Shown here: positions 6,826-61,475 of the stretch, in pieces
Position numbering within the stretch: position 1 is the first letter of the stretch
Layout: the number at the start of each line of letters is the position of its first letter
NCBI GenBank assembly: GCA_964610465.1
Contig: CAZSWA010000006.1
Coordinates: forward strand, 4,332-68,331
DNA from: an uncultured Gammaproteobacteria bacterium
GTDB lineage: Bacteria; Patescibacteriota; Microgenomatia; Levybacterales; UBA12049
DNA: 64,000 bases
Reading direction: 5' to 3'
Made by a program: the position numbers and the translations under genes
Notes under the pieces: model-generated
Database searches by the model: none
What the model saw: only the letters and a program-made list of their open reading frames with translations
What the model was told of the DNA's origin: nothing

Positions 6826-7284
6826 TTGATATCGTGGAATATGAAAAAATCCAAGATGAATAAACAGATTACAGTTATTGCAGGTGTGGTAATAAAAGAC
6901 AATAAAGTTTTAATGGTTTTGCGTAATGAAGAGGAGCAACCGGATGCGCATCTCAAATGGGAATTTCCTGGAGGCAAAGTTGATTTTAGCGAAACAATAG
7001 AAGAATCACTCGCAAGAGAATTTTTGGAAGAAACAGGGGTTGAGGTAAAAGTGAAGGAACTTTTGCCATTTGTCCAGACAAGCTATTGGAACTATGAATG
7101 GGGAACACAGCAAACTCTTTGTTTTGTATTTCTTTGTGAATTTATCAAACAGCATGCTGTTCCATTAGATCATCATGTAAAGAAAATTGAGTGGATTGAG
7201 ATTGAGAAAATAAAAGATTTAGCATCACTTCCCGGAACAAATGAGGTAATAGAGATTGTGAAGAAAGAATTGGCAATAAGTTAA
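6826..7284 (+). CDS. NUDIX hydrolase
   Basis: Nudix box GGKVDFSETIEESLAREFLEETGV. Confidence 0.8.
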   Translation: MISWNMKKSKMNKQITVIAGVVIKDNKVLMVLRNEEEQPDAHLKWEFPGGKVDFSETIEESLAREFLEETGVEVKVKELLPFVQTSYWNYEWGTQQTLCFVFLCEFIKQHAVPLDHHVKKIEWIEIEKIKDLASLPGTNEVIEIVKKELAIS

Positions 7285-20835: not shown

Positions 20836-20954
20836 TCTCCTTGACATTTATCCTATAGCTTGATAGTATTTCTCTGTACTTTAACATGTTGCGGTAGTGC
20901 GTTCTCGTAGTGCATTGTTTAGTTTTAACAACAGATAACACAAAGGAGAAGCAG

Positions 20955-21227
20955 GTGCCAGATTCCAACGACACGGTGAGAGTCAATTTGTTCAACGATG
21001 CGGTGCGCAATTTAAAGGCACATATCGATGAACAACGTCATCAAGGCGTGCAGATGTTTGACATCCCAGTCATCTTTCTCAAGCATGCGAATTTTTTCTT
21101 CGACGAAGACAGCCCTCTGTGCAGAGAGGTACTGCTTGAGTTGAAGCAGCTTTTCCTTAAGGAAGGGTTGACCATGGATGTGGTTCCTAACAAGGACCGT
21201 TCCTTGTTGCAGCTCGTACTGAACTAG
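20955..21227 (+). CDS. Hypothetical small protein (GTG start), possibly a divergent HicB-like paralogue
   Basis: AGGAGA RBS then GTG at 20955; shares short motif AVRNLK with the downstream HicB ORF; preceded by the same leader repeat. Confidence 0.3.
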   Translation: MPDSNDTVRVNLFNDAVRNLKAHIDEQRHQGVQMFDIPVIFLKHANFFFDEDSPLCREVLLELKQLFLKEGLTMDVVPNKDRSLLQLVLN

Positions 21228-21282
21228 TACATGTAGTGCGTTGTTTAGTTGAAAAAAACCGACAGCATGAAGGAGAGAGACA

Positions 21283-21489
21283 GTGCGTAGTTATCTCGCA
21301 GTGCTATGTCTAGAAGGTGATGTCTATGTAGCTGATTGTCCTCAGCTTGGGACTGTGAGTCAAGGACTTACCATCGAGGAAGCAGTTCGTAACCTCAAAG
21401 AGGCAACAGAAGTCTTTCTTGAATGTGCTCCAACTAGAGAGTCTAGAAAGGTGGTAATAACGACATTCGAAGTTGATACCGCAACATAG
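21283..21489 (+). CDS. hicB: HicB-family (UPF0150) antitoxin-like protein
   Basis: 68 aa; YLAVLCLEGDVYVADCPQLGTVSQGLTIEEAVRNLKEATEVFLE matches HicB N-domain consensus; GTG start with AGGAGA RBS. Confidence 0.7.
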   Translation: MRSYLAVLCLEGDVYVADCPQLGTVSQGLTIEEAVRNLKEATEVFLECAPTRESRKVVITTFEVDTAT

Positions 21490-21578
21490 AATTGCAATAT
21501 TTCCGGGATGGGAAGGAGTCACAATGCTGTGACAAAATTCCATTCCATCTTTGGAAAAGAGGGAAACCTCAACAATAA

Positions 21579-21605
21579 TCCCGCAGATAACCCTGCGGGA
21601 TTTTT
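21579..21605 (+). terminator. Rho-independent terminator after the HicB cassette
   Basis: TCCCGCAG-ATAAC-CCTGCGGGA followed by TTTTT. Confidence 0.5.
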
Positions 21606-21626
21606 CATATTTGCCTATCCAATGAA

Positions 21627-21896
21627 TTATTTTGAAAAACTAAGGAACAATGTGCTATAGAGAAGCGCGTCTTCAGCACGTTTTTTGAAATCTTTTTCTT
21701 CTGACAATTTTTCTACTTTTTTTACTAATTTTTTCATTGTCTGGGATAATGATAAGAAATCCAATTGTTTTTCTCTTTTTATTACTTCCTGCAAGAATCT
21801 ATCTGCCATTTGTATTGACCCTGAATGATACCCAATAGCAACACGTTTTAAATCAAGTGCTATCGTTTGTAATAGTGCATTATTGTTCATATACAT
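21627..21896 (-). CDS. Hypothetical protein
   Basis: ORF 21627..21926; start trimmed to MNNNALL to reduce overlap with the upstream gene. Confidence 0.25.
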   Translation of the reverse strand: MYMNNNALLQTIALDLKRVAIGYHSGSIQMADRFLQEVIKREKQLDFLSLSQTMKKLVKKVEKLSEEKDFKKRAEDALLYSTLFLSFSK

Positions 21897-22224
21897 TCTG
21901 GAAAAAAAACTTAGTGAGTTTTTCATATGTATATCTTAATTTGGTATCTTGTATTTCAATACTCGTATTCTTTTGTTGTGGACGAATATTGATAAATGAG
22001 TTAAAGTCTATTTCTTTCGTTTCCAGATTAATGCCGCCACCCCATATATCTTCCTGTTTTGAGCCTTCCTGCAGAAGAATCTTTTCAGAATCAGCATGTA
22101 AATCACACCCTGCGGAACAAATTCTATTTTTCATATCGATAACTGTTTTGATATATATATAATATTTCTCTGCAAGTTTTGTAATCTCTTTTTTTGTAAA
22201 AGGAGTTGTTTTTGTAATTATCAT
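21880..22224 (-). CDS. Hypothetical protein
   Basis: 114-aa ORF; no motif recognised. Confidence 0.3.
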   Translation of the reverse strand: MIITKTTPFTKKEITKLAEKYYIYIKTVIDMKNRICSAGCDLHADSEKILLQEGSKQEDIWGGGINLETKEIDFNSFINIRPQQKNTSIEIQDTKLRYTYEKLTKFFFQNVYEQ

Positions 22225-22571: not shown

Positions 22572-23093
22572 TTACGTCAGTTCAGAAATTATTTCCAGCG
22601 CTTTTAAATATGTTTTGTGCCTTATGTTTTTTTTTGCTTCCTTTTTGGTAACCCATTTTGTCTCATTGAATTCTGTTAAGTCCACATGTACTTTTGTTGT
22701 TTGTAACAAATACCAACTATCATAATGAGCTTTGCAAGGTTGTCCGTCATTATGAATATACATAACAGAAAATAAAAATGGTTCATCAATTTCTTTCACA
22801 TCAATTCCTAACTCTTCTTTTGCTTCCCTTTTTACAGCATCTTTCAATAATTCTCCCTTTTCAATATGTCCGCCAGGAACTACCCATTGTTTTGCTTTTT
22901 TATGATGAACAATAAAAATTTCTTTTGTTTTTGGATTAAAGGGGATAAAGAAAACGCAGCAATGATATTCTGAATTTTCATTTTTTGTGAGCTTACCACT
23001 TTTAACTAATTGAAAAAAGTCTTTATATTCTTTTTGATTGAGAAAAAGCTGAGGGGTAATAAGGTGAGAAAGTTCGCTTGTCAAATTTTGCAT
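22572..23093 (-). CDS. NUDIX hydrolase
   Basis: Nudix box GGHIEKGELLKDAVKREAKEELGI. Confidence 0.75.
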   Translation of the reverse strand: MQNLTSELSHLITPQLFLNQKEYKDFFQLVKSGKLTKNENSEYHCCVFFIPFNPKTKEIFIVHHKKAKQWVVPGGHIEKGELLKDAVKREAKEELGIDVKEIDEPFLFSVMYIHNDGQPCKAHYDSWYLLQTTKVHVDLTEFNETKWVTKKEAKKNIRHKTYLKALEIISELT

Positions 23094-27439: not shown

Positions 27440-27805
27440 TTACTCAGCAGTACCAATATACTGTTTAATTTTATCTAATAAATCTTTCATATCAAATGGT
27501 TTTGCTAAAAAATCATCCGCGCCCGCTTCTTTGGCTGAAGTTTGTATATCACGGCTTGCTGAAACCATAATAATAGGAATATGCTTAGTAAAAGGATTCT
27601 TTTTTAAATACTTACAAATTTCTCGTCCATCTTCTCCTGACATCCAGATATCAAGTAGAAGTATATCAGGATACTCTTTCTCCATCTTATAAATTGTCTG
27701 TCCATCAAGGGTTGAATCCACTTCATATCCAAACTCTTCTAAAATAAGGGTTGTCGATTCTACAATAGCTGGATCATCATCAGCGATTAATATTTTTTTT
27801 GCCAT
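27440..27805 (-). CDS. Single-domain response regulator (CheY-like receiver)
   Basis: KILIADDD...LLDIWM...MVSA receiver motifs; 121 aa. Confidence 0.8.
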   Translation of the reverse strand: MAKKILIADDDPAIVESTTLILEEFGYEVDSTLDGQTIYKMEKEYPDILLLDIWMSGEDGREICKYLKKNPFTKHIPIIMVSASRDIQTSAKEAGADDFLAKPFDMKDLLDKIKQYIGTAE

Positions 27806-27871
27806 ATACTATCCTTTCATGTCAATTTACTAGTGAAATTGTAAAACAAATTTATGAAAACTCTGAAAGAG

Positions 27872-29494
27872 TTATTCATGTTTGATTTCTTCCTCAGCTT
27901 GTTGTGATAGGCTACCTTTCTTTTTCTTACCAGCTTTTTTTAATGGTAATGTGAAGCAGAAGGTTGAGCCTTTTCCTTCTATACTTTCTACCCATATTTT
28001 TCCACTCAAACGTTTAACAATTTCGCTTGAAATATATAATCCAAGACCAAGTCCAGGATACGTCTCTTTTCCTGGTCCACTTGCTCGAAAAAAACGCTCA
28101 AATACTTTATCTTGCTTATCTTTTGGTATGCCTACTCCAAAGTCTTGAACACAAAGTTTTATGCTTTCTTTTTCTACTGATGACCATATATGTATTTCTT
28201 TTGCATAGGGAGAATATTTTATTGCATTGGAGATGAGGTTATTAAGTACCTGACTAATACGTTCATGATCTGCATAAATAGTTTTGCCTGTTTTGCCTTT
28301 TTTTATCAGTACATGCTTATCTGTTGTTCGTTGCAATTCCTCAACTACCTCATCCACTAATTCATCAAATGAGAATTGCGCACTATTAAACTGCATTTTG
28401 CCTGATTCGATCTTGGTGATATCAAGCAAATCACCAATAAGGTTAGTTAATTTATCTACCTGTGCATCAAGCTTACCAATCAGTTCTGCTGCGTTTTGAT
28501 TCCCTTCTTTGGTGAATCGATGTTTTAACAACTGCGCGAATGATTTGATACTAGTTACTGGCGTTTTTAATTCATGACTTGCAATACCTAAAAACTCATC
28601 TTTTTGACGTTCCAAATGTTTTTCTTGGGTAATATCTCTTGCTATTTTAGAAGCTCCAATAACGTGCCCATCTTTATCTTTAATGGGTGAAACGGTAAGT
28701 GATATATCAATTCTCCTTCCATCCTTTGCCGTTCGAACTGTTTGAAAGTGATCTATACGCTTTCCTTGTCTAAGAGTGGTAAGGATTTCATCTTCTTGAT
28801 ATTGAAGTTCAAGCGGTATAATAGTTCGAATAGATTTACCAATTATCTCGTGTGCTTTATATCCAAAGATTTTTTCTGCACCTTTATTCCAAGTCATGAC
28901 AATACCGTCTAGATTTTTGCTAACAATTGCAACGTCAGATGATTCAACAATTGCTGCTAGTCTAAACTGTTCTTCCTGGGCTTTTAAAAAATATCCATGG
29001 AAGGTAAAAGCAACTTGAGAACCAATAGTATCAATAAATATGCTAAGTTTTTGTGAAAGCTCATAGATTTCATCTGCTGTTAATTTTTTTACCAGCCCTG
29101 TTTCTTCTAGTTTTTTCCATATTGCTTGTTTAAGATAGATCGATCCATTAACTAACTCTTCTATAGTTAGTCCCTTCTTGAGCGCTTCTTCTGCTATTTG
29201 CTTTCCAAACTTTCTTATTTCTTGCGAAGCCTTCTGTATATCTTTTGATTCTAGTGAGTTAGCAACCTTTTGAACAACTTTTATATGTTGTCCTTTAAAC
29301 TTTTTTAAATAGTCATTACGAAGACCTTTACTAGTTAAATACATTTTATGATAATGTGTTGCTTTATCTTCTATTTCCTCAGCATTATCAAGAAGAAATT
29401 GCTTAATCTTTAAAAACTTTGGCTGCAGGATTTTATCTTGAGACTTGCTTTTATCATTTAATTTTTGCATAACAAATATACGATAAAATACCAT
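27872..29494 (-). CDS. Sensor histidine kinase with PAS domain (cytoplasmic)
   Basis: PAS segment, HisKA H-box HELKTPVTSI, HATPase_c G-boxes (DFGVGI, GLGLGL); alternative start MQKLNDK at 29470. Confidence 0.8.
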   Translation of the reverse strand: MVFYRIFVMQKLNDKSKSQDKILQPKFLKIKQFLLDNAEEIEDKATHYHKMYLTSKGLRNDYLKKFKGQHIKVVQKVANSLESKDIQKASQEIRKFGKQIAEEALKKGLTIEELVNGSIYLKQAIWKKLEETGLVKKLTADEIYELSQKLSIFIDTIGSQVAFTFHGYFLKAQEEQFRLAAIVESSDVAIVSKNLDGIVMTWNKGAEKIFGYKAHEIIGKSIRTIIPLELQYQEDEILTTLRQGKRIDHFQTVRTAKDGRRIDISLTVSPIKDKDGHVIGASKIARDITQEKHLERQKDEFLGIASHELKTPVTSIKSFAQLLKHRFTKEGNQNAAELIGKLDAQVDKLTNLIGDLLDITKIESGKMQFNSAQFSFDELVDEVVEELQRTTDKHVLIKKGKTGKTIYADHERISQVLNNLISNAIKYSPYAKEIHIWSSVEKESIKLCVQDFGVGIPKDKQDKVFERFFRASGPGKETYPGLGLGLYISSEIVKRLSGKIWVESIEGKGSTFCFTLPLKKAGKKKKGSLSQQAEEEIKHE

Positions 29495-29727
29495 TGATTA
29501 TCGAAAACAAGTTTGATTATACGAAAAACAATGTGAGAATTGTGTAAGATGGGATACTATATTATGCCAGTTAATATTGTTGAACACATTTGAATTTCTT
29601 CGTTGTAAATAATATTGCTGAGTAAATTAAGGCGCTCTAATAGATCAAACACAGATTAAAAAAACGGAGATTGGCTGCGACATTAGAATCTATTTTATGA
29701 GTATTTAAATGTATTTCCTTGTAATTG

Positions 29728-29798
29728 CTGCGGAGCAGGGACTCGAACCCCAATAAACGGATCCAGATTCCGTTGTCCTACCATTAGACGACTCCGCA
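29728..29798 (-). tRNA. tRNA-Gln (anticodon CUG)
   Basis: Hand-folded cloverleaf: U1-A72 acceptor (7 bp), D stem GTCT/GGAC, anticodon stem ACGGA/TCCGT with loop ATCTGGA, T arm TGGGG-TTCGAGT-CCCTG, discriminator G; CCA not encoded. Confidence 0.8.
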
Positions 29799-32121: not shown

Positions 32122-32427
32122 ATGAAACTGCCAAAAGAATTAACTACTGTTACTCGACTTTTCAAGACACTTGCGTTTATTCTGTTTATCAGTATGCCAA
32201 TTATTGCCTTCTTTTTGGACAGACAGTATCAACAAACAATAGATATCCAAGCAATGCAACAAAGTGTTTTATATACTCCAACACCTACAATTGAAAATAG
32301 TCAATCATCTTGTACTTCTGATGCTGATTGTCATAATGGTGCACGATGCATGGTAACAGGACCGCTTATCGCCAATCAGACTCCTCATAAAGTCTGTGTT
32401 CCAAGAGGTCAAGCAGTACCACTCTAA
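32122..32427 (+). CDS. Small secreted/membrane-anchored cysteine-rich hypothetical protein
   Basis: N-terminal hydrophobic segment; 6 Cys in the C-terminal half. Confidence 0.35.
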   Translation: MKLPKELTTVTRLFKTLAFILFISMPIIAFFLDRQYQQTIDIQAMQQSVLYTPTPTIENSQSSCTSDADCHNGARCMVTGPLIANQTPHKVCVPRGQAVPL

Positions 32428-32466
32428 AACCTTCCATAGATAATTCATTTCTGTTATACTAAATTA

Positions 32467-32829
32467 ATGCTATTTTTATTGGGACTTATTGTACTTGGAG
32501 TATTGGCTGGAATATTAAGCGGTCTTATAGGCATAGGAGGAGGAGTACTGATTGTTCCATCTCTTATTTTCTTTTTTGGATTTACTCAGAAAATTGCACA
32601 AGGCACAACGCTTGCACTGCTTGTTTTGCCAATTGGAATACTGGCTGCATGGACCTACTACAAACAAGGGTATGTAGACTTTCGAGTTGTTGCACTTATT
32701 ACGTTGGGTTTTATTGTCGGAGGATGGCTTGGTGCGCAATTTGCAACCAGAATTCCCAATGTTTTGTTAGCTAAGCTATTTGGTATCGTGCTTATATTAA
32801 TTGGTTTGAAGATGGTATTTTGGAAGTAA
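32467..32829 (+). CDS. TSUP/TauE-SafE-like half-size membrane protein (DUF81)
   Basis: 120 aa, 4 TM, Gly-rich LIGIGGGVLIVP motif. Confidence 0.55.
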   Translation: MLFLLGLIVLGVLAGILSGLIGIGGGVLIVPSLIFFFGFTQKIAQGTTLALLVLPIGILAAWTYYKQGYVDFRVVALITLGFIVGGWLGAQFATRIPNVLLAKLFGIVLILIGLKMVFWK

Positions 32830-32908: not shown

Positions 32909-33679
32909 ATGAAAAATCAGTTAAGAATTTGTACATGGAATATCCATTTCGGACACGAACTTCCCCTTATTCTCAAAATAATTAAAAAGTCAAAAGATTT
33001 TCAAAACATAGATTTACTTGCATTGCAAGAAACTTCAATACATAACGGCATTGACGATGCTTTGACAATTGCTCAGATACTTGGCAAGGAGTATGACTAT
33101 TTTCAAGTGAATGCACATTTGTTTAAAAAAATTCCACAAGCCAATGCACTTATCTGGAATACCAAAAGAATTATGGTTACAAAAAAAGAAAGTTTTTTTC
33201 TCCCGAAAGTATATCAAGGCAATATCTCACGACTTGAAAAAACGTTTTTCTTGTTTGTTCCGAAACAGCAGCGTAATAGTCTTGTTATTGAAGGAAAATT
33301 TAGTAAGAAAACAATTCGTATATATGTAAGTCATCTTGATGTGTTTGGTTTCGCTCATAAACGCGCACAACTCGCAACGGTTTTTCTGGATGAAAAAATA
33401 CGGGAAGAAGTTGATATGACTTTTATCGCAGGAGATTTTAATACCTTTAAATTTTATAAAAGACCAACCTGGCAATCGCTTGCTGATGATACTGCGCTTT
33501 ATGGATTTAAAGATATTACATCTGATATTATATGGACTTTTTTTCACCCCAAACTTCGGATGAGACAAAAACTTGACGCGATTTTTATAAAACCTCAGAA
33601 TCTTTCTTATACATCATGGAGTCTTGATATACCTGGCTCTGATCATATTCCTGTATTTGCCAATATAAATCTGCCATAG
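32909..33679 (+). CDS. Endonuclease/exonuclease/phosphatase (EEP) family protein
   Basis: N-terminal LRICTWNIHFG and C-terminal SDHIPV motifs. Confidence 0.7.
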   Translation: MKNQLRICTWNIHFGHELPLILKIIKKSKDFQNIDLLALQETSIHNGIDDALTIAQILGKEYDYFQVNAHLFKKIPQANALIWNTKRIMVTKKESFFLPKVYQGNISRLEKTFFLFVPKQQRNSLVIEGKFSKKTIRIYVSHLDVFGFAHKRAQLATVFLDEKIREEVDMTFIAGDFNTFKFYKRPTWQSLADDTALYGFKDITSDIIWTFFHPKLRMRQKLDAIFIKPQNLSYTSWSLDIPGSDHIPVFANINLP

Positions 33680-38875: not shown

Positions 38876-39319
38876 ATGCAAGCTGAACGTTTTACACTAA
38901 GAGCTGCCGCTTATCTATTACTTATAAAAGATAACAAGATCTTGATTATAAGGAGATATAACACTGGCTGGAGTGATGGGGAATATAGTCTAATAGCTGG
39001 ACATCTGGATGGTAATGAAACAGTATTGGAAAGTATGGTTCGTGAAGCGAATGAAGAAGCTGGAATTACAGTTAAGCCCACAGATTTACATATCATTCAT
39101 GTAATGCATCGAAAATCCATAGGTGAAGATTTAGAATATATAGATTTTTTTGTTAGTGCGGATAAATGGAAAGGCATACCAAGAATTACTGAAAAAGATA
39201 AATGTGATAATATGCAATGGGTTCCATTAAATAATCTCCCACAGAATGTTATTCCTCATGTAAAACAAGCAATATATAATTATAAAAACAAGATTGCGTT
39301 TTCGGAATTTGGATTTTAA
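38876..39319 (+). CDS. NUDIX hydrolase
   Basis: Nudix box GHLDGNETVLESMVREANEEAGI. Confidence 0.8.
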   Translation: MQAERFTLRAAAYLLLIKDNKILIIRRYNTGWSDGEYSLIAGHLDGNETVLESMVREANEEAGITVKPTDLHIIHVMHRKSIGEDLEYIDFFVSADKWKGIPRITEKDKCDNMQWVPLNNLPQNVIPHVKQAIYNYKNKIAFSEFGF

Positions 39320-39322
39320 TAT

Positions 39323-40063
39323 ATGCAAATAAAAGTTATTACATGGAACATATGGCGTGGCAAATATCTTGATGGAGTTATTGATTTCTTAAAAAGTAGT
39401 AATGCTGATATTATCGGGCTTCAGGAAATAATAGAAGATGAAAGTCTAACAAGTCGGGAGAACTTAGCACAAATTATTGCCAAATCACTTGGATATAATT
39501 ATGTATATTGTAAGGCTTTTACTACAGATAGACATATGCCTATATATGATATAGGGAATGCAATACTTAGCAAGTACGAAATACAAAATACCATGTGTAT
39601 AGAATTAAGCGGATTGAGCGATTACAAAAGTGATTCTACAACCGAACCCCGTAATGCAATAAAAGCTGAGATTACTATTAATAATAGAACACTTACTATT
39701 CTTAATACACATCTTGCATACTCTCATGAACTTAAGCCGTTTGAGCTTCGAACAAAACAAGTAGAAAAATTAATTCCACCTATCAAGTCACAAAATACTA
39801 TTTTAATGGGAGATTTTAATAGTATGTTGGAAAATGAAGAAATGAAAAGAATACAAGAAGTTATTCCCAATGCAGATACGAGTACAGAAAAACAGGCAAC
39901 ATGGAGTGTCTACCCAACTGATTATAAAGGATTTATAGTGAAAGGACTTGAATATAGAATTGATAATATTTTTGTAAGTAATGACATTCGTGTAGTCAAT
40001 TTTGCGATAGAAAGTTCAAGAGCTTCTGATCATCTCCCAATAAGTGTCCTTGTTGAAATATAG
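39323..40063 (+). CDS. Endonuclease/exonuclease/phosphatase (EEP) family protein
   Basis: IKVITWNIWRG N-terminus and SDHLPISV C-terminus. Confidence 0.75.
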   Translation: MQIKVITWNIWRGKYLDGVIDFLKSSNADIIGLQEIIEDESLTSRENLAQIIAKSLGYNYVYCKAFTTDRHMPIYDIGNAILSKYEIQNTMCIELSGLSDYKSDSTTEPRNAIKAEITINNRTLTILNTHLAYSHELKPFELRTKQVEKLIPPIKSQNTILMGDFNSMLENEEMKRIQEVIPNADTSTEKQATWSVYPTDYKGFIVKGLEYRIDNIFVSNDIRVVNFAIESSRASDHLPISVLVEI

Positions 40064-40067
40064 CGAT

Positions 40068-40673
40068 ATGAATCTTAGAGTAGTAAAACCAACTGATACT
40101 ATCCTCCGTACAAAATGCAGTCCAGTTTCAAAAAAAGAATTACGTACAAAAAACATGCAAAATCTTATAGATGAATTGCTTAATTTCGTATATGGCAGCA
40201 GTAATAAAGGAAAAGAAAGAATTACAAAAAAACCAATGACAGTTGGTTTATCTGTCAATCAAGTAGGTATTCCCAAAAGGATAGCAATTGTTGATTTGGC
40301 AATTGGTAAGAAAACCTACAATGATTTATATGTACTTATAAATCCTGAAATCTTGTGGCATTCAAAAACACTCATTGAAAAAAGTGAAGGATGTGTTAAC
40401 CTACCTAACGTCTGGGGATATGTAAAACGATATAAAAAAATAAAAATAAAAGCACTTGATAGATCTGGAAATGAATTAATCCTTATGCTTCAAGGATAGC
40501 CCGCAATACTACTGCAGCATGAGATAGGACATCTCAATGGAGAACTGTTTATAGACAAACTTGAAAATCCACAAAAAGCACATCTGGTAAAAACCGGAGA
40601 ATATAAAGCATATAAAAAAACTAAAAAAAGCTGGAACAAATACATTGATATCTCATCATTAATTAAAAAATAA
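40068..40673 (+). pseudogene. def: Peptide deformylase interrupted by a single in-frame TAG (40497-40499); motif III QHEIGHLNG lies downstream of the stop
   Basis: Motif I GLSVNQVG and motif II EGCVNLP are in ORF 40044..40499; same frame continues PAILLQHEIGHLNGELFIDKL... to TAA at 40671-40673. Confidence 0.7.
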
Positions 40674-41916: not shown

Positions 41917-42603
41917 CTATAAGGAATAATCAAGTGTTGAGTGTTCTTGAGAAATAAATAGAATTTCTTCTTCCAGTTTTTTAATATTTCTTAACAATAA
42001 GAATTTCCCTTCCCGTGCCACAAAACCGGCTTTTTCTAACTTTTTCATCTCAAGTGATGTAGTTTCTCTTGTAATTCCAACAAGGGTTGCAATATCTTTA
42101 TGTGTAAGCGGGACTTTGAAAATAATACTATCTCCCTGTTCTTCACCAAAACGTTTTGCACAGATAAGTAATGTTGCTGCGACTTTTATGTAGGCATTAC
42201 TGCATACGAGATATTCCATTCTTGAAAGAAATCCATCAAACCGTACTAGAAGACGCGATGTGAGATCTTCATATACATCAGGATTATCTTTTATAAAATG
42301 CAGAAATTGTTCTTGTGGGGCGCTCCAGAGTTCAAGCGGAGTTATCGCTTCAAGATAATATGGATTGGTAATATTATTCATTCCATACGTAAGCGGAAAA
42401 AAATCATCAGGTTTAAGTATTGTTAAAGTAAGTTCTTCTCCTTGTTCTGAAAGTCTATATACTCGTACATATCCGCTTTTGATAAAAAATACGCTTGAGG
42501 AATTATCGTTAGCATGGAGAATCATACTGCGTTTTTTATATTTGAGGAGTTTATATTTTTGAAAAAATAAATTAATCTTAGATACCGAATTAAGTATCAA
42601 CAT
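41917..42603 (-). CDS. Crp/Fnr-family transcriptional regulator
   Basis: cNMP-binding beta-roll region plus C-terminal HTH (HKDIATLVGITRETTSLEMKKLE). Confidence 0.8.
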   Translation of the reverse strand: MLILNSVSKINLFFQKYKLLKYKKRSMILHANDNSSSVFFIKSGYVRVYRLSEQGEELTLTILKPDDFFPLTYGMNNITNPYYLEAITPLELWSAPQEQFLHFIKDNPDVYEDLTSRLLVRFDGFLSRMEYLVCSNAYIKVAATLLICAKRFGEEQGDSIIFKVPLTHKDIATLVGITRETTSLEMKKLEKAGFVAREGKFLLLRNIKKLEEEILFISQEHSTLDYSL

Positions 42604-42742: not shown

Positions 42743-43915
42743 ATGGATAATGTCATAGAAAAGATATATAACTGTACTTTAAAATTATTAGCATCTACAG
42801 ATACAAAAGAGTTATACAAATCAATTGTTGTGGAAGGAAAAGAACTGGTAAATGCAGAATTCGGATCAATTTATCTAGACAATAACGATACCTTTTCTTT
42901 AGCATATAGTTCATTACCATTTCTCAATAAATTTAAATTAAGACGTAATGGATTTGTACAAAAAACCTTTCAGACAAGGAAAATTGTTATTCTTCATGAG
43001 AAAGACATACTAAAAATACGGCCTGCCTTAGGTCGAAAAGCGATGCAGTCAGTAATTATGATCCCATTGTCCTATGTAAATAAATCAATTGGTGTGCTTT
43101 GTTTTAATTCTTCAAAGCAGGAACATTTTTCGGATAATGAGTTACATATATTAAAACTTTTTGGATCAATTGCCAGTCTCGCAATTACCAAAGCACACCA
43201 TCTTGATTCAGCAAAAAACGCCATAGAAATTAGAGATAGATTTATATCTCTTGCCTCTCATGAGCTAAGAACTCCTTTAACTTCTATTAACGGATATATT
43301 CAGCTTCTCTATGCGAAACTTGCAAATAAAGGTACTTCTGAATCCCGTTGGGTAGAAGAATTGTATAAAGAAAATATAAGACTGACAACCTTAATTAAAG
43401 AACTTTTAGATGTGAATAGAATAAAACAAGGTCAATTACACTTTGTTCTTAAAGAAGTAAATATTTTAGAGCTACTAGAAAAAGCAATAAAATTGATACA
43501 CGCCAATTATTCTGAAAGAGATGTCCAATTTAAAAACTTAGTAAAACAGAAAAATACTGTATTGGTCATTGGAGACTATGAGAAATTGCTTGATATTTTG
43601 AATGCGCTTCTCAATAACGCAGTAAAATTTTCTCCTCCTCATTCAAAAATAGTAGTAGCTATTGAATTAAAGGATCGTACAATTTTTATCCATATTAAAG
43701 ATAAAGGAAAAGGTATTCCCAAAAAAGATATTCCCAAAATTTTTGAAGGATTCTATAAACATAATATAGAACAATATAAAGAAGGAATGGGAGTCGGGTT
43801 GTTACTTGCAAAACATATTATTGAGTATCATAAAGGGAAATTGAGCATTATTTCAGAAGAAAATAAAGGGACAACAATTACAATAGAACTTCCGTCAATT
43901 CAATATACTCATTAA
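42743..43915 (+). CDS. GAF-domain sensor histidine kinase (soluble)
   Basis: GAF-like N-half, H-box HELRTPLTSINGYIQLL, HATPase_c (KDKGKGIP, GMGVGL). Confidence 0.8.
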   Translation: MDNVIEKIYNCTLKLLASTDTKELYKSIVVEGKELVNAEFGSIYLDNNDTFSLAYSSLPFLNKFKLRRNGFVQKTFQTRKIVILHEKDILKIRPALGRKAMQSVIMIPLSYVNKSIGVLCFNSSKQEHFSDNELHILKLFGSIASLAITKAHHLDSAKNAIEIRDRFISLASHELRTPLTSINGYIQLLYAKLANKGTSESRWVEELYKENIRLTTLIKELLDVNRIKQGQLHFVLKEVNILELLEKAIKLIHANYSERDVQFKNLVKQKNTVLVIGDYEKLLDILNALLNNAVKFSPPHSKIVVAIELKDRTIFIHIKDKGKGIPKKDIPKIFEGFYKHNIEQYKEGMGVGLLLAKHIIEYHKGKLSIISEENKGTTITIELPSIQYTH

Positions 43916-45573: not shown

Positions 45574-46245
45574 TTATTCTTTGATGACGTAGCCGAATCC
45601 ACGTACAGAGTGAAGGAGTTTTTTGGGATAGCCATTGTCAATTTTTTTTCTGAGGTAGCCCATGTAGACATCAACTACTCTGGTTTCTACTTCTGAGGAG
45701 TACAGCCAGATTCTACTTAAGATCATTTCTCGTGTTAATATTCTTCCTTTGTTACTCATTAAGTACTGAAGAAGTTTAAACTCCTGGGGAGTAAGTTGAA
45801 TAAGTTTTCCAGAGCGTTTAACCTCTAAGGTTTTATTATCTAACTCTAAATCATCAACTTTGAGCGTTGCATTGGTATCTCCTTGTTTTCTTAGCCTTGC
45901 TTTAATACGAGCTAAGAATTCATCAGCAACAAAAGGTTTGGTCATGTAATCATCAGCACCAAGGTTTAAGCCTTGAACAATATCATTGATGGAGTCTTTG
46001 GCAGTAAGAATGATGATAGGCAGGTCTTTATGTTTTTTTCTGATTTCCTGACACACTGCTTCACCACTCATGTTAGGAAGACCTAAATCAAGAACCACCA
46101 CATCCGGGTCTCCTTTTTTAAAGTATTCTAAAGCTTGAATACCATCTCCTACTGTATGCACAGCATACCCATTATCCAGCAACAACTCCTTCAAATACTT
46201 CTGCAATCCCTTATCATCTTCCACTACAAGTATTGTATGTACCAT
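45574..46245 (-). CDS. OmpR/PhoB-family response regulator (receiver + winged helix), copy A
   Basis: LVVEDD..., LDLGLP, TAKD receiver motifs; C-terminal wHTH VDVYMGYLRKK; ORF extends to 46284, start placed at MVHTILVVEDD. Confidence 0.85.
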   Translation of the reverse strand: MVHTILVVEDDKGLQKYLKELLLDNGYAVHTVGDGIQALEYFKKGDPDVVVLDLGLPNMSGEAVCQEIRKKHKDLPIIILTAKDSINDIVQGLNLGADDYMTKPFVADEFLARIKARLRKQGDTNATLKVDDLELDNKTLEVKRSGKLIQLTPQEFKLLQYLMSNKGRILTREMILSRIWLYSSEVETRVVDVYMGYLRKKIDNGYPKKLLHSVRGFGYVIKE

Positions 46246-46247
46246 AA
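45577..46247. repeat. Direct repeat A (~670 bp), near-identical to 50617..51287
   Basis: Sequence lines 45601-46227 match 50641-51267 base for base on inspection; boundaries approximate. Confidence 0.8.
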
Positions 46248-46402
46248 GTGCCCAAATTATAACAATATTTGTCCAGATTCTCAAAGGGGAAAATAAGAAA
46301 TGCGAAATAACCCTATATAAAATGTAAGAGTTTTGCTGCCGCGCTTGACTTCTCTTACCAATAGTTGTAGATTCTCTTACAATATTCTAATATTTAAATC
46401 AT

Positions 46403-47845: not shown

Positions 47846-50605
47846 ATGATAATAGAAGGTGATAGAAGACCTGATAATGGTTCTATCCATAACCAAAAAA
47901 TTCCCTTTGACACTCCTAAAATAGGAGATCCTCATGGAGAAGTTTCTGGTAGGATAGGATTTACAGAGTTGCAGCAACTCTATCAAGCTCCAAAAGAATC
48001 CCGTGAAGTAAAATCTCCAACAGGAAAAGAGTGGATGTTTGTAGTGGAAGGATATACTCCGGAAGATTCAATAGAAGAAGAACGAAGAGAAAGACTCCTG
48101 GCATTAGGAAACGGAAATTTTACGATTGAACAAAAAGGTATAGATGGTTCAATACATATGGTATATCAAAAAGGTTTTTACATGCGTAACTCGGAGTCAG
48201 AATCTTCTGATTCAAGTCCTGTTGCTGCTGCGTTTAATATCGCAGGTTTTGGACTCCATATCAATAACGGTGAGCATTTAAATCCACGTACTTCTGATTT
48301 ATCTGACATAAAGAGAGAATATGACTTACGTCATGCAACTCTTACCACTTCGTATACATGGCATGAGCATGATAAAGGTCAGGAAAGAAAAACTGATGTA
48401 GAAATTGAATTATTTGTGAGTCAAACAGACCCAAATATCATTGCAAGAAAAATAACACTTAAGCCAAATTATAATGGTTCGCTGACAGTGAAAATGGGTA
48501 TTGAAGGGAACGCAGATAATGGTGGTATAGATTTTGTTGAAGAAGCACAGACAGAAGAAGTAGATGCTAAGATAACCCATTATAGTGCAAAAGCAAGATC
48601 ACATACTGAAGTATCAAAACCCAAAGATATTGCAATCGCACATAAAATAGATACCAATAGTGATGATATACAAAGAAAAATACTGCATGAAAATAGAAGC
48701 ATACACCAGGATATTACTGTAGCTGAAGCAAAAGCAGGTCAACCGTTGGTATTTGAAGAAATTATCAGTCTGCATACGAGTGTTGACCAAAAGTATGGAG
48801 ATAAATTTGGATGTACACCAGGAGAAGCTGCAATAGCTGAAATTAAAGAGGTAAAAAATTATGATGAGCTTAAAAAAGCTCATATAAAAGCCTGGGATAC
48901 AATTTGGGAAGATTCTGAACTTGAAGTAGAAGGTGACCCTGAAGTTGTATTTGCGCATCATTTTAACCGTTCACATTCCTTACAAGATGAACGAGAAGGT
49001 TATGATGAAGGCAGCACTGGAGCAAAGTTTAATCCTAAGCCGAGAAAAGGGTATGGTAGGCGCTCATTTCATGATGATAGATATCGAGCCCATAAAAAAC
49101 CTGAACTTTTAGAAACACACTTAAACTTCCGAATGAAATTAATGGAAGCAGCAAGAAAAAAAGCCAAGAGAACCCTATATGATTTTCGAATGAGAACAGC
49201 AACAACAGATGAAGAACGGGCAAAAGCAGAAACGCTTTATCACTCAAACATTGATGAAGGAATCCATTTGCCCTGGGAAGCATACTCTCCACCAGAGGAC
49301 GGAGAAGACCCAGAAGGCGGTCCAAAATGGATAATAAATGCTAAAGGAGAAAAAGTTGAAGTAGAAGCACTAGAAGAAGAAATTCATATTAATGCTGCAT
49401 TTGTACGGCAGATAGTGGAGCTCTATCATATGACAGGAGATAAAGAAAAACTCAGGAAATTTGCTCCATTTATTTTGGAATCAGCAAGATTCTATTCACT
49501 TCGTGGTTCTGAAGATGGAGTATATCGTGGAGTTATGGGTACTAATGAATACCATCCTCATGTGGATAATAATGGTTTAACCCAGACATATAGTAAATAT
49601 ACTATTGATAAAGCGCTTTGGTTATTGCAAGAAGGAATTGTCACAGATGAACAAATAAAAGAATTACATCTTACACAAGAAGAACTAGATAAATGGGAAG
49701 ATATGAGACAAAAAATTCATATTCCTCTTAATACAAAGACAATGATACTTAGTGCATTTGATGGGTATGAAGAAAAACAACATATTGATTTAAACTCGCC
49801 AGAGTATAAAGGTGTTGTTGGAATGGATAGTTTTCTTCTAAAAAAAGGGATACATGTGAGAGACACTGATGTTATTAAACAACCTGATGCAACACTTGTA
49901 TTACGGGAACTTTATTATGATTTTCTCAATCTTCTTTCACCTGAACAACTTAAGGAATTACGATTGAATAATCCTGGAAAATCAGATAATGAGATAATGG
50001 CTCTTATTTTTAAGACCAATCAGAAGTACTATAGAGAACATACGTGTCATGGTTCATCTCTCTCTCCAAATGAAAATGTGATAGCAGATCTTTTGGCTGG
50101 TGAAGATCCAAATACTGTATTTGAAACATACAAAGAGACTATTGCTATGGATGTATCACACAAGAATACTCATAACACACAAGACGGGTTACATAGTGGA
50201 AATATAAATGCAGCAGAAAAAGCTTTAGATGAAGGCTATGGAGGTGTTACAATAAATAAAGACGGTATTCATATGATACCAAGACTTCCTGATGCTAGTA
50301 AAATCTCAGTTATTCGAAGTACTGAATATTATAATGGAAATAAAGTAGGGATTGAAGTAAATCAAAATACAAATAAAATTACTGCAACTGCACTGGAATT
50401 TGCGCAAGGTGAAGAAGGAAGTGTGCCTGTATACTTAAATGGCAATTTTATATCCCTTTCAAGGGAGCATCGAACTGAATCAGTTGCACTTAAAGATACA
50501 GCTCAAGAACAACAGGAAAAAACAATTTTCTCTTCTACGCCGAAATTACCACAATTTTCACTTCCTCAACAACCTATATTTAATGGACAAACCTACGCTC
50601 AATAA
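47846..50605 (+). CDS. Glycoside hydrolase family 65-like protein (disaccharide phosphorylase family) with large charged insertion
   Basis: GH65 N-domain signature EWMFVVEGYTPEDSIEEERRERLLALGNGNF; 919 aa with Lys/Arg/Glu-rich insert around residues 380-470. Confidence 0.55.
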   Translation: MIIEGDRRPDNGSIHNQKIPFDTPKIGDPHGEVSGRIGFTELQQLYQAPKESREVKSPTGKEWMFVVEGYTPEDSIEEERRERLLALGNGNFTIEQKGIDGSIHMVYQKGFYMRNSESESSDSSPVAAAFNIAGFGLHINNGEHLNPRTSDLSDIKREYDLRHATLTTSYTWHEHDKGQERKTDVEIELFVSQTDPNIIARKITLKPNYNGSLTVKMGIEGNADNGGIDFVEEAQTEEVDAKITHYSAKARSHTEVSKPKDIAIAHKIDTNSDDIQRKILHENRSIHQDITVAEAKAGQPLVFEEIISLHTSVDQKYGDKFGCTPGEAAIAEIKEVKNYDELKKAHIKAWDTIWEDSELEVEGDPEVVFAHHFNRSHSLQDEREGYDEGSTGAKFNPKPRKGYGRRSFHDDRYRAHKKPELLETHLNFRMKLMEAARKKAKRTLYDFRMRTATTDEERAKAETLYHSNIDEGIHLPWEAYSPPEDGEDPEGGPKWIINAKGEKVEVEALEEEIHINAAFVRQIVELYHMTGDKEKLRKFAPFILESARFYSLRGSEDGVYRGVMGTNEYHPHVDNNGLTQTYSKYTIDKALWLLQEGIVTDEQIKELHLTQEELDKWEDMRQKIHIPLNTKTMILSAFDGYEEKQHIDLNSPEYKGVVGMDSFLLKKGIHVRDTDVIKQPDATLVLRELYYDFLNLLSPEQLKELRLNNPGKSDNEIMALIFKTNQKYYREHTCHGSSLSPNENVIADLLAGEDPNTVFETYKETIAMDVSHKNTHNTQDGLHSGNINAAEKALDEGYGGVTINKDGIHMIPRLPDASKISVIRSTEYYNGNKVGIEVNQNTNKITATALEFAQGEEGSVPVYLNGNFISLSREHRTESVALKDTAQEQQEKTIFSSTPKLPQFSLPQQPIFNGQTYAQ

Positions 50606-51285
50606 TTACTTTTACTCTCTTTGATGACGTAGCCGAATCCACGTACAGAGTGAAGGAGTTTTTTGGGATAGCCATTGTCAATTTTTTTTCTGAGGTAGCC
50701 CATGTAGACATCAACTACTCTGGTTTCTACTTCTGAGGAGTACAGCCAGATTCTACTTAAGATCATTTCTCGTGTTAATATTCTTCCTTTGTTACTCATT
50801 AAGTACTGAAGAAGTTTAAACTCCTGGGGAGTAAGTTGAATAAGTTTTCCAGAGCGTTTAACCTCTAAGGTTTTATTATCTAACTCTAAATCATCAACTT
50901 TGAGCGTTGCATTGGTATCTCCTTGTTTTCTTAGCCTTGCTTTAATACGAGCTAAGAATTCATCAGCAACAAAAGGTTTGGTCATGTAATCATCAGCACC
51001 AAGGTTTAAGCCTTGAACAATATCATTGATGGAGTCTTTGGCAGTAAGAATGATGATAGGCAGGTCTTTATGTTTTTTTCTGATTTCCTGACACACTGCT
51101 TCACCACTCATGTTAGGAAGACCTAAATCAAGAACCACCACATCCGGGTCTCCTTTTTTAAAGTATTCTAAAGCTTGAATACCATCTCCTACTGTATGCA
51201 CAGCATACCCATTATCCAGCAACAACTCCTTCAAATACTTCTGCAATCCCTTATCATCTTCCACTACCAATGTAGTATTTACCAT
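50599..51285 (-). CDS. OmpR/PhoB-family response regulator, copy B
   Basis: Protein identical to copy A from residue 6 onward except for the C-terminal extension SKSNY. Confidence 0.85.
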   Translation of the reverse strand: MVNTTLVVEDDKGLQKYLKELLLDNGYAVHTVGDGIQALEYFKKGDPDVVVLDLGLPNMSGEAVCQEIRKKHKDLPIIILTAKDSINDIVQGLNLGADDYMTKPFVADEFLARIKARLRKQGDTNATLKVDDLELDNKTLEVKRSGKLIQLTPQEFKLLQYLMSNKGRILTREMILSRIWLYSSEVETRVVDVYMGYLRKKIDNGYPKKLLHSVRGFGYVIKESKSNY

Positions 51286-57481: not shown

Positions 57482-59761
57482 ATGAAATTCTCAATACGTA
57501 CAAAGTTACTTATCGGTTTTGCATTGCTTCTTACGTTATCCTCGTTAATCCAGACATTTTCCTTTAGTATCACACGGGATTATATTTATTCACAAATCAG
57601 TAACTCACAATTAAACGAGGCAAATAAAGGTGCTAATACAATACAGGCATTTTTTAAGAATTTAAGTTCTATTAACTTCGGCCTTGCACATACATATAAA
57701 GAGAATATTTCTACCCCAAGCGCCTCAAGTAGCTCAAATTTTGTCTATATTAATGAATATACTATAAAGAATAATGATCACATCAAGAAAATTTCCTATC
57801 TTACTCCTGCAGGACGTGAACTATATAAATTTGATGAGCATGGGCAGATGTCACAAGATCAGCTTAACTATGAATTATTTACTGAAGAATTTAAGTCAGC
57901 AGCTTCAGGCAAAACAACTATTTCAAAAGTATATTATCTCGATAAGGAATTAGGTCCTCATATAGATATATTTACTCCCATTTTTCTCAATAATACTGTT
58001 TCGGCTGTTATTAAAATGCAGATTAGCCTGGAAAATTTAAGGCTTACTCTTGCCGATATAAAAGTCGGAGACAACGGGTATGTATATGTAGTAGACGAAA
58101 AAGGGAGACTTATTGCGCATCCATCACAACAATTCCTGTCGCAAAGACCTAATCTATCTAAAAGAAAAGTTATCACAGCAGCTTTGCAAGGCAAAGAATT
58201 ACCAAGGGCGGCTGAGGTTTATAAAGATGAAAAAAATACTATCGTAGCTGCAAAAGCAGTAAAAATTTCGGGAATAAACTGGGTAGTTGTTTTTGAACAA
58301 CCTATATCTGAAGTATATGGTTTTCTGGATTTTACCAGAAACCTATTTATTTTTACTCTCATATCTTCAAGTTTACTACTCCTCTTGATTGCTCTTTTTA
58401 TTAGTGAAAATTTAACTCGATCGATAAGAACACTAGAAAAAGCTACTACATTACTTGAAAAAGGAATGCTTGATAAACCAATTAATATCAAGACAGGGGA
58501 CGAGATTGAATCATTAGCCGAATCATTTAATTTAATGACATATAACTTGCTGCAATGGGAAAATTCTCTAAAAAAAGAAAAGCGGGAAATGGAAATCCTG
58601 CTTCAATCATTAACAGATGGAGTAATAGCACTTGACCAGAATTTTACTATACTTCTTTTTAATAACGCGGCCGAAAAAATAACAGGCTTAGCTGCAAAAG
58701 CAGTTATATCACGAAAAATAGATGAGGTGTTGTATTTATATATGAACGACAAAAGGATACAACTCTCTACGTCAGATATCACTTCTCAAGAATTTGAGAA
58801 AAAATTACTTGAAAAAGGGTTAAATTTTATGAATCTAAACGGGAAAAAAATATCTATCTCTGTTACCATCTCTCCTCTTTTGTTTGATGATAAAACACAT
58901 TCTGGATGGATAATGACTTTTCGTGATACCACAAAAGATGCAGAACTTGAAGAAATGAAAATAGACTTCGTCTCAATGGCTGCACATGAATTGCGTACAC
59001 CTCTTACTGCTATCAGAGGATACGCCTCTCTTTTGCTGGAGGTAAGCACGAAACTCACTGATGAAGAGAGAGATTATGTAAAACGATTAATTATTAACAG
59101 TGAAAACTTAGCCAGTCTTATTGATAATTTACTCAATGTTTCAAAGATTGAACGAAATCAATTCAATATTGTAAAAGCTCCACTGGATTTAGCAGAAATT
59201 ATAAAAAGTATAGTCGAAGGATTAAAAGAACTAGCCAAAACAAAAAGCCAAACACTTGAGCTCAATATTCCTAATGATAAACTTCCTATAGTCATGGCTG
59301 ATAAATTCCGTATTAGTCAGGTAATAGCAAATCTTGTTTCTAATGCACTTAATTATACTCCTGAGAAGGGTAAGATAATAGTAACCGTTGATATACGAGG
59401 AGATTATTTACAAGTGGCAGTAGCTGATAACGGACGCGGAATTCCAAAAGATGCGATTCCAAAATTGTTTACCAAATTCTTCCGTGTAGCAGGGAAATTA
59501 GAACAAGGAAGTAAAGGCACAGGGCTTGGGCTCTTTATCTCACGCTCAATAATTGATATGCATAGAGGAAAAATTTGGGTAGAAAGTGAAGAAGGGAAAG
59601 GCACAACATTTACCTTTGTTTTACCTCTTGCAAAACCCGAAGAAATAGCAGAATATCAAGAACAAAAAGGGAAAACTACCTTGACTGGTCAGCACACACC
59701 AGGTATTATTAATAGAGATTTAAATACAATAACAACAAAAGAGGTTGATAAAACAATATAA
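57482..59761 (+). CDS. Sensor histidine kinase with extracytoplasmic Cache-like domain, HAMP, PAS, HisKA and HATPase
   Basis: Two TMs flank a ~270-aa periplasmic domain; H-box HELRTPLTAIRGY; G-boxes DNGRGIP, GTGLGL. Confidence 0.8.
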   Translation: MKFSIRTKLLIGFALLLTLSSLIQTFSFSITRDYIYSQISNSQLNEANKGANTIQAFFKNLSSINFGLAHTYKENISTPSASSSSNFVYINEYTIKNNDHIKKISYLTPAGRELYKFDEHGQMSQDQLNYELFTEEFKSAASGKTTISKVYYLDKELGPHIDIFTPIFLNNTVSAVIKMQISLENLRLTLADIKVGDNGYVYVVDEKGRLIAHPSQQFLSQRPNLSKRKVITAALQGKELPRAAEVYKDEKNTIVAAKAVKISGINWVVVFEQPISEVYGFLDFTRNLFIFTLISSSLLLLLIALFISENLTRSIRTLEKATTLLEKGMLDKPINIKTGDEIESLAESFNLMTYNLLQWENSLKKEKREMEILLQSLTDGVIALDQNFTILLFNNAAEKITGLAAKAVISRKIDEVLYLYMNDKRIQLSTSDITSQEFEKKLLEKGLNFMNLNGKKISISVTISPLLFDDKTHSGWIMTFRDTTKDAELEEMKIDFVSMAAHELRTPLTAIRGYASLLLEVSTKLTDEERDYVKRLIINSENLASLIDNLLNVSKIERNQFNIVKAPLDLAEIIKSIVEGLKELAKTKSQTLELNIPNDKLPIVMADKFRISQVIANLVSNALNYTPEKGKIIVTVDIRGDYLQVAVADNGRGIPKDAIPKLFTKFFRVAGKLEQGSKGTGLGLFISRSIIDMHRGKIWVESEEGKGTTFTFVLPLAKPEEIAEYQEQKGKTTLTGQHTPGIINRDLNTITTKEVDKTI

Positions 59762-59762
59762 G

Positions 59763-60161
59763 ATGAAAAAAATTTTATTAGCAGAAGATGATTTTTTTAT
59801 TAGAGATATCTATAAAAGAATTTTTGTAAATGGTGGCTATGAGGTTGATGTTGCTGAAGATGGCGAAATTACATTGAATAAGCTGAAAGCCCAGCCTTAT
59901 GATCTAGTATTGCTTGATATCATGATGCCAAAAGTCACGGGGATTGATGTACTAAAAACATGTAAAGCATTTGATTCTCCAATAAAGAATATCCCTATTT
60001 TCCTCATTACTAACTTGGGTCAAGAAAGTATTATAAAAGAGGCATTTAGACTAGGCGCAAATGGATATTTCTTAAAGGCTCAACTGACTCCACAACAAAT
60101 TCTTGCAGAAATAAATGCTTTTTTTGAGAATAAAGAAAATCCTAATGCACCTATTACATAG
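59763..60161 (+). CDS. Single-domain response regulator (CheY-like)
   Basis: KILLAEDD, LLDIMMP, receiver fold; starts 2 nt after the kinase stop. Confidence 0.8.
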   Translation: MKKILLAEDDFFIRDIYKRIFVNGGYEVDVAEDGEITLNKLKAQPYDLVLLDIMMPKVTGIDVLKTCKAFDSPIKNIPIFLITNLGQESIIKEAFRLGANGYFLKAQLTPQQILAEINAFFENKENPNAPIT

Positions 60162-60401
60162 AATCATTTACCACCTATTAAACCATAGAAAATCATTGAA
60201 AGATTATGCAGCAAGCATTCTCGATATCTGTACGCCTTTTTTTCGGTAGCAAATTCCAAGAAATTCAAGCTGAAGAGTCACTTCTCATAAAAACTATTGT
60301 GCGACATAACCTACAGGAACGAAATTTATTCTCCACTAAGTTTGACCGGTACCCCATATACTAAGACAATATTCTGAGATAATTTGAGAGAATAAAGATA
60401 T

Positions 60402-61056
60402 ATGGGGTTTGTAAAAGTAACACCAAAAGAGATAAGAGATGAAATTCTTGCGAAAGTAAAAGCGGGAGAAAGAGTCGCGGCTCTTGTAAAGCAGTATGGA
60501 CTATCTGATAGAATAATTTATGGATGGCTGCATAAAACCACAGGAGAAGGAACTGTTTCCATATGATTTATGGGTTTCAGACGTAAGTTTTCTAAAATTT
60601 CAAGGAAGATTCTGGTATTTAGTAACCATTGAAGAGATTGTAAACAGAAGGATTATTGGAGCGCATGTTGGCAAAAAACATGATAGGTATTTAGTATTAA
60701 CCGCTGTAAAAGAAGTCCTCATTCAAACAAAAGAAGCTCCTTCAATTTTTCATTCTGATCAAGGCACAGAATTTATGGCAGAGGAGGTAACTTCCTTTTT
60801 GAAAAACTTAGGAACTCAAATTTCAGCCTCTGACAAAGCAAGTTCCTGGCAAAACGGCTATCAAGAAAGTTTCTTTGGACGCTTTAAAGATGAAATTGGA
60901 GATATAAATCGCTTTGACACTATTGGAGAATTAATTGAAGAAATTTATCTGCATATCCACTATTACAATACTCAAAGAATTTATACCGCATTAGAAATGC
61001 CACCCGCCGTTTACGCAAATGCTCTCAGAGCATTGTCGGAAAAAATGGGTACTTGA
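60402..61056 (+). mobile_element. Degenerate IS3-family insertion-sequence remnant (truncated OrfA HTH plus frameshifted OrfB integrase-core fragment)
   Basis: OrfA' 60402..60566 MGFVKVTPKEIRDEILAKVKAGERVAALVKQYGLSDRIIYGWLHK (HTH), no leucine zipper or frameshift window; no terminal inverted repeats recognised by eye. Confidence 0.7.
60520..61056 (+). pseudogene. IS3-family transposase OrfB (rve integrase core) fragment
   Basis: DLWVSDVSFLKF..., HSDQGTEF, NGYQESFFGRFKDE = DDE catalytic-core region. Confidence 0.65.
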
Positions 61057-61475
61057 CACACGGGCGACGAGGACAGTTATTCCCTTCCATGCGCCAGCCA
61101 GGTACGGGGATGTTTCGGAAAGCGGACATGCTGAGAGAGGCGCCAAAAGGTGACGACGTACGGCTCTATGTTGAGTTGTTGCGCCGTGCGCATCGTCGCG
61201 AGACGGGAGGATCGCTTCCTCATCCAGCCAAGTGTCTATGCGTCGCTGTGCCTGCTCGAGGCTGGCGTTCCACACCTTTGGATATACGAGCAGATGTCCC
61301 ACCCCAATCGCGGAAATCGCCGAAGTGGCCGATGTCCTGAATGGCTACATCGTGAAGAGCCCATGCGCTCAGGCCGACGGCGATGCTGAAGATCTTCTTG
61401 GGCTCAGGGAGCGGGCGGGAATGACAATGGGGGATGACAGGAATCTTGTTCTGGAAGAGATTTTTACTTATTATC
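61057..61475. other. ~420-bp high-GC (roughly 55-60%) segment of foreign composition between the IS remnant and purA
   Basis: Abrupt compositional shift; overlapping ORFs in five frames (61053..61340+, 61150..61389+, 61232..61483+, 61220..61486-, 60991..61302-) as expected for high-GC DNA. Confidence 0.5.

Follow-up and report, generated by a model that had tools for sequence, protein, structure and literature searches.

The question raised by this locus is whether a peptide deformylase gene (def) interrupted by one in-frame TAG codon is broken in the cells that carry it, intact there and misreported by the assembly, or expressed through read-through of the stop. The gene lies in a window of 64,000 nucleotides (64 kb), the whole stretch of DNA analyzed here, and its parts and nearest neighbors are listed in Table 1. 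A real and very recent TGG-to-TAG nonsense mutation that inactivated an accessory def is the explanation that we favor, with modest confidence.

Table 1. Positions of the interrupted def gene and of the two genes preceding it, numbered within the window.
Feature	Position	Strand	Content
NUDIX hydrolase gene	38876-39319	+	PF00293; upstream of def
Endonuclease/exonuclease/phosphatase-family gene	39323-40063	+	PF03372, 1-225 of 225; stop TAG 40061-40063
def 5' part, codons 1-143	40068-40496	+	VGLSVNQVG (motif I); EGCVNLP (motif II, with the Cys metal ligand)
In-frame TAG, codon 144	40497-40499	+	Changed base is the A at 40498
def 3' part, codons 145-201	40500-40670	+	Motif III (QHEIGH) and the conserved C-terminal extension
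TAA, normal end of def	40671-40673	+	Homologues end within a few residues

The first-pass annotation had described an ORF at 40044..40499 that carries motifs I and II and ends at TAG. Both motifs and the TAG were recovered, but the start had to be moved: GTG 40044 overlaps the gene upstream of def, and ATG 40068 agrees with the starts of homologues and with tblastn, so that the predicted product is 143 rather than 151 amino acids long and is identical to an entry in the public protein collection (P0002). Beyond the TAG, the frame had been reported to continue for 57 codons and to encode motif III, and this was borne out by the sequence, by its translation (PAILLQHEIGHLNGELFIDKL...), and by a match to PF01327 that runs across the stop. 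The residues flanking the stop are LMLQG-X-PAILLQHEIGHLNGELFIDK, where X is the TAG position. The catalytic residues encoded in the frame are Gly60, Gln65, Cys109, His151, Glu152, and His155; in the family alignment, Q65, E107, and C109 never vary and G60 hardly does. The QHEIGH of motif III, which comprises two His ligands and the catalytic Glu, is coded at 40515-40532, so that the DNA contains it but the predicted product does not. The truncated protein had been expected to lack the catalytic metal ligands; the two histidines are indeed lost, together with the catalytic glutamate, but the cysteine ligand of motif II is kept.

Searches against domain profiles placed both sides of the stop in the same protein. 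Across the whole frame, PF01327 was matched from profile position 3 to 155 of 156 (E = 8.6e-40); when the stop was written as X, the score was 136.3 bits (cutoff 22.8). The N-terminal part alone matched positions 3-128 (E = 1e-27), and the C-terminal part of 57 amino acids alone matched positions 131-155 (E = 1.5e-5). With W at the stop, TIGR00079 gave 115.8 against a cutoff of 103.95. The repaired frame is therefore above both curated cut-offs and would be assigned to the peptide deformylase family. An open frame of 57 codons after a stop has a probability of about 0.014 from base composition alone, a figure that the homology across the stop makes irrelevant. Separate translation of the 3' part was ruled out, since no in-frame ATG, GTG, or TTG was found in the 57 codons after the stop. 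An AAGGA immediately 5' of the TAG is part of the Gln-Gly codons. The gene should best be annotated as a def pseudogene or a possible sequencing error, and not as a deformylase of 143 amino acids.

The ancestral state of the interrupted codon was sought among homologues, a comparison that the first-pass annotation had proposed. A homology search returned 188 proteins at E <= 1e-10, nearly all of about 200 amino acids, 50-69% identical, and from uncultured bacteria; the few named ones belonged to Levybacteria, Daviesbacteria, and Saccharimonadia. An alignment was made of 38 full-length relatives from Levybacteria-like CPR bacteria, with identities of 49-69%. At the position of the stop, 37 of these have Trp, within the motif G-W-P-A-I-L-L-Q-H-E, and the remaining one has Arg; a stop at codon 144 was found in none of the 38. 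TGG being the only codon for Trp, a single G>A transition at base 40498 is enough to turn the family state into the TAG. Such a change runs the way that AT mutation pressure would push, and the GC content of the window is 31-40%. In alignments with PDB structures, a Tyr or Leu that immediately precedes 'PAIV(F)QHEIDH' stands opposite the stop, at a position that corresponds to Leu125 of the E. coli enzyme, a residue of the S1' pocket.

Short matches from the homology search were inspected for truncation at the same codon, and none was truncated there. P0090 and P0112, both from short contigs, are missing the N terminus; the gene of P0110 is intact but its start was mis-called; and in P0113 the interrupting TAG occupies another codon. 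When metagenome contigs were searched with the repaired protein, four distant matches (34-36%) were obtained, and no close relative or near-identical strain for comparison at the TAG was found in the JGI metagenomes. Genome contigs searched with the family alignment gave, among the matches listed, distant deformylases only (29-45% identity). The homologues share the motifs GLSANQ, EGCVNLP, and GWPAILLQHE and a conserved C-terminal extension of about 35 amino acids with invariant Ala171 and Trp189. They form a distinct family of type-2-like deformylases of about 200 amino acids in Levybacteria-like, Saccharimonadia-like, and related CPR bacteria. This family appears to be undescribed in the literature searched, where nothing specific was found on def with in-frame stops or on def in CPR bacteria. 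Its recognition, outside the priA-def-fmt arrangement, is a mildly useful by-product of this analysis.

Compared with intact orthologues, the gene has a single disabling lesion, the TGG>TAG change at W144. The columns that are invariant 3' of the stop (L148, Q150, H151, E152, H155, A171, and W189) are all intact. At the 77 columns conserved in at least 85% of the family, only three deviations were observed, all conservative (A63V, V127I, and V195I), which is a typical count for a family member. The nearest homologue is 69% identical and synonymous sites are saturated, so conservation of the N- and C-terminal parts of the protein was compared in place of dN/dS. The ratio of downstream to upstream identity to the family was 1.10, within the range of 0.94-1.17 for intact members. 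No sign of relaxed constraint, in the form of extra lesions or lost conserved residues, was found in def. Conservation of the downstream part at the level of the upstream part implies that the change is very recent, or is not real, or is tolerated through residual translation. These three cannot be separated by sequence alone, and the complete lack of secondary decay would also fit a gene that still functions.

The meaning of TAG in the window was examined in a greedy, non-overlapping set of 69 ORFs, which gave 90% coding. The stops in this set were 48 TAA, 12 TAG, and 9 TGA. TAG also terminates 11 ORFs besides def, one of them the gene that is separated from the def ATG by 4 nt, and those that were scanned match Pfam domains to their ends (for example PF03372 1-225/225, PF01061 2-209/211, and PF00768). 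The ORF that ends with the TAG at 622-624, previously named secD, was confirmed by a match to SecD_SecF_C and is followed by secF from 628. In Pfam scans of about 60 window ORFs, full-length domain matches were obtained and no other gene broken by a frameshift or a stop was seen; nor was another in-frame TAG found in a recognizable gene of the window. The standard code is thus used here, TAG is a working terminator, the assembly is clean, and the stop in def is isolated. The search for a suppressor tRNA(CUA) that had been suggested was negative across the 64 kb, where a single tRNA gene, for an ordinary tRNA-Gln(CUG), was found at 29727-29798.

Two other places in the window were considered as split genes and rejected. 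At 21271-21828 there appears to be an unrelated small ORF, and 32122-32829 holds two intervening stops, a small secreted-type ORF, and a half-size TauE gene. The small ORF at 21271-21489 (+) resembles a HicB-type antitoxin by eye (...YVADCPQLGTVSQGLTIEEAVRNLKEATEVFLE), has no NCBIfam match, and sits beside a DUF5674 gene in a poorly coding stretch (about 20900-21900). The gene at 32467-32829 (+) encodes a half-size (120 aa) membrane protein of the TauE/SafE family that covers only positions 129-237 of the 237-position profile; the small Cys-rich ORF in front of it, at 32122-32427, is unrelated. Additionally, the sole match of a 178-aa ORF at 60520-61056 (+) is to the integrase core (rve, rve_3) of DDE transposases; the ORF is small by comparison with a complete IS transposase and is probably an IS remnant. 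The region 60000-62000 has a GC content of 0.405, the maximum of the window.

The neighborhood of def and of its relatives bears on whether the gene is dispensable. The NUDIX gene, the endonuclease/exonuclease/phosphatase-family gene, and def, which starts 4 nt after the stop of the latter, probably form one operon, and stress or accessory genes (HD, KGG, transglycosylase-associated, YtxH, and Crp) surround it. Neither a second def nor fmt was found within the 64-kb window. Across five loci (the window, L085, L088, L089, and L090), members of the family of about 200 amino acids have differing accessory neighborhoods, and fmt adjoins def in none of them. One such homologue, P0024, is encoded on the 1.32-Mb contig CAZDOJ010000001.1 of GCA_964507055.1. 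The canonical short def of similar metagenomes encodes 148-159 amino acids and lies in priA-def-fmt (loci L091 and L092), as is seen for P0115 (159 aa, 44% identical).

One of these relatives appears to have decayed. A divergent homologue of about 200 amino acids with 53% identity, at 2060-2695 of the L089 locus (a 44-kb Logan contig of SRR30024182), is split by an in-frame TAG at 2264-2266 ('RVRY*GMAVNQFG'), just before motif I and at a different codon from that of the window. Three contigs carry a record of its C-terminal product, and TAG serves as the terminator of other genes in the locus. Conserved columns deviate at nine places in this copy, W144R and changes in motif II among them. By its sequence it looks like a decaying pseudogene. 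Since this copy is broken and apparently decayed, the family can be lost. The neighborhoods, together with this decayed homologue, suggest that the window def is an accessory, dispensable paralogue and that a housekeeping def likely lies elsewhere in the genome.

The organism itself is known from one sampling. The window's aspartyl-tRNA synthetase is 70-80% identical to its best matches; few of these carry names, and the majority of those that do are from Patescibacteria or Levybacteria. Clustered at 90% identity, ten window proteins remain singletons, and both NCBI and Logan list each of them on a contig of 71,808 bp. Because no close relative was found, there is no independent strain for comparison at the TAG. 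The gene content of the window includes three NUDIX genes (6826-7284, 22572-23093, and 38876-39319) and two genes of the endonuclease/exonuclease/phosphatase family (32909-33679 and 39323-40063). The window also encodes four response regulators and three histidine kinases, whose sensors are of the PAS, GAF, or Cache type, at 27440-29494, 42743-43915, 45574-46284, 50599-51285, and 57482-60161, along with a Crp-family regulator at 41917-42603. Two-component signaling is unusually abundant for a small-genome CPR bacterium.

Under the favored explanation, a G>A transition would have turned the TGG of Trp-144 into TAG in the def of a Levybacteria-like member of the Patescibacteria. Release factor 1 would end translation there, leaving a product of 143 residues that keeps motifs I and II, has no His-Glu-x-x-His helix, and would be incapable of metal binding or deformylation; the 57 codons downstream would have no start of their own. 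The mutation would be very young, as the rest of the gene is undecayed. The cell would tolerate the loss because this def of about 200 amino acids is an accessory copy outside priA-def-fmt, with a housekeeping def probably present elsewhere. We infer that the mutation is real in the cells, rather than a base-call artefact, and that the second def exists. If the window def were the only one and fmt were present, a null allele would be strongly deleterious.

Of the explanations offered in the first-pass annotation, a nonsense pseudogene and a sequencing error both fit a single G>A step from TGG in a gene with no other lesion, and we consider the second of them possible, at clearly less than an even chance. 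Cells would then carry TGG and a functional def, and the TAG would come from a base-call, consensus, or assembly artefact or from a minority variant fixed in the consensus. The sole defect is indeed a single-base substitution, with conserved residues intact on both sides and no downstream relaxation, and the base has no independent confirmation in an organism sampled once, with ten singleton clusters at 90% and no close relative in JGI. On the minus strand, moreover, the changed base directly follows GGGC; this context has been described as prone to Illumina sequence-specific errors, which is a lead and not a test. Set against this are the cleanness of the rest of the window, where about 60 ORFs have full-length domains without frameshifts or stops, and the rarity of consensus substitution errors at normal coverage. 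The same 143-aa product is also recorded from two sources, NCBI and Logan, which faintly suggests that two assemblies agree and that the TAG is not peculiar to one of them, although both probably drew on the same reads.

Translation past a real stop was judged less probable in each of its forms. An unlikely one is a leaky stop, where near-cognate tRNAs (Gln, Tyr, or Trp) would give low, unprogrammed read-through of UAG, making the gene a 'pseudo-pseudogene'. Trace amounts of enzyme would sustain purifying selection, and the 57 downstream codons are perfectly preserved; a very young mutation or an error explains that preservation equally well. The base after the TAG is C, as in three of the 12 TAG-ended ORFs (def included), and C after UAG is the weakest context for RF1 in E. 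coli, again as a lead only. No stimulatory RNA structure was found: the minimum free energy of the segment 40490-40590 is -12 kcal/mol, shuffled sequences average -14.6 (z +0.93), and 168 of the 200 shuffles are as stable or more so. Moreover, homologues in the PDB have Tyr or Leu at the site, and insertion of Gln might give an inactive enzyme. That a near-cognate tRNA, or a suppressor tRNA whose gene lies elsewhere, reads a real UAG at Trp-144 often enough for an active full-length deformylase to be made is very improbable; if true, termination efficiency would set the expression of the accessory def, and the TAG of L089 would hint at a recurring feature of the family. Programmed recoding by a suppressor tRNA(CUA), pyrrolysine machinery, or a regulated read-through signal, which the first-pass annotation had also raised, did not hold up and is similarly far from probable. 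In its favor are simply the open frame beyond the stop, the essential catalytic motif encoded there, and the in-frame TAG of a second, divergent family member in L089. That TAG, however, is at another codon of a copy with nine deviations, in a locus where TAG ends other genes, and the stop of the window is conserved in none of 38 homologues. There is also no 3' RNA structure, no tRNA beyond tRNA-Gln(CUG) in the window, and no Pfam match to a Pyl gene among the scanned window ORFs, and TAG is the normal stop of 11 neighboring ORFs, including the gene 4 nt upstream. A genome-wide reassignment of UAG to sense, already thought unlikely at the outset, has nothing in its favor beyond the single in-frame TAG; it is refuted for the window by the 11 other TAG-ended ORFs, those scanned being domain-complete, and is close to negligible for the genome.

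The recent nonsense allele that we favor is an ordinary event, as is a consensus error in def, and all likely readings of the locus are ordinary. As it stands, the stop matters little, being one broken gene among about 69 ORFs of a metagenome-assembled contig. It would matter only if fmt were present and this were the sole def of the genome, in which case a CPR bacterium would depend on read-through of UAG for an essential enzyme or live without deformylation.

Among known systems, the window def is closest in form to bacterial peptide deformylases of PF01327 and TIGR00079, all three motifs of which it encodes. An insertion preceding motif I is shared with the type 2 enzymes of Gram-positive bacteria, and the alignment with two of these, from S. 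aureus (1lmh) and B. cereus (PDF2, 2okl), extends from end to end. It differs in the interruption of its frame at codon 144, and its family has Trp where the deformylases in the PDB have Tyr or Leu. The family also differs from known deformylases in the Ser-Ala-Asn of motif I, the Val-Asn of motif II, the conserved C-terminal extension of about 35 residues, and a location away from fmt. With the pseudo-pseudogenes of Salmonella, whose in-frame stops are reported to allow translation at a low level (PMC9122581), the window def would share a trace of full-length protein if any is made. Ordinary nonsense pseudogenes and null alleles provide a nearer parallel: the premature stop arises in one step, the direction is AT-biased, and other genes are unaffected. 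Unlike ordinary nonsense pseudogenes, the window def has no decay, and in this it is indistinguishable from an error or a recent polymorphism. In Bacillus subtilis, either def or ykrB can be deleted, but not both. Two def types likewise occur in CPR-type metagenomes, and if they co-occur in one genome, as is supposed here, one copy would be dispensable.
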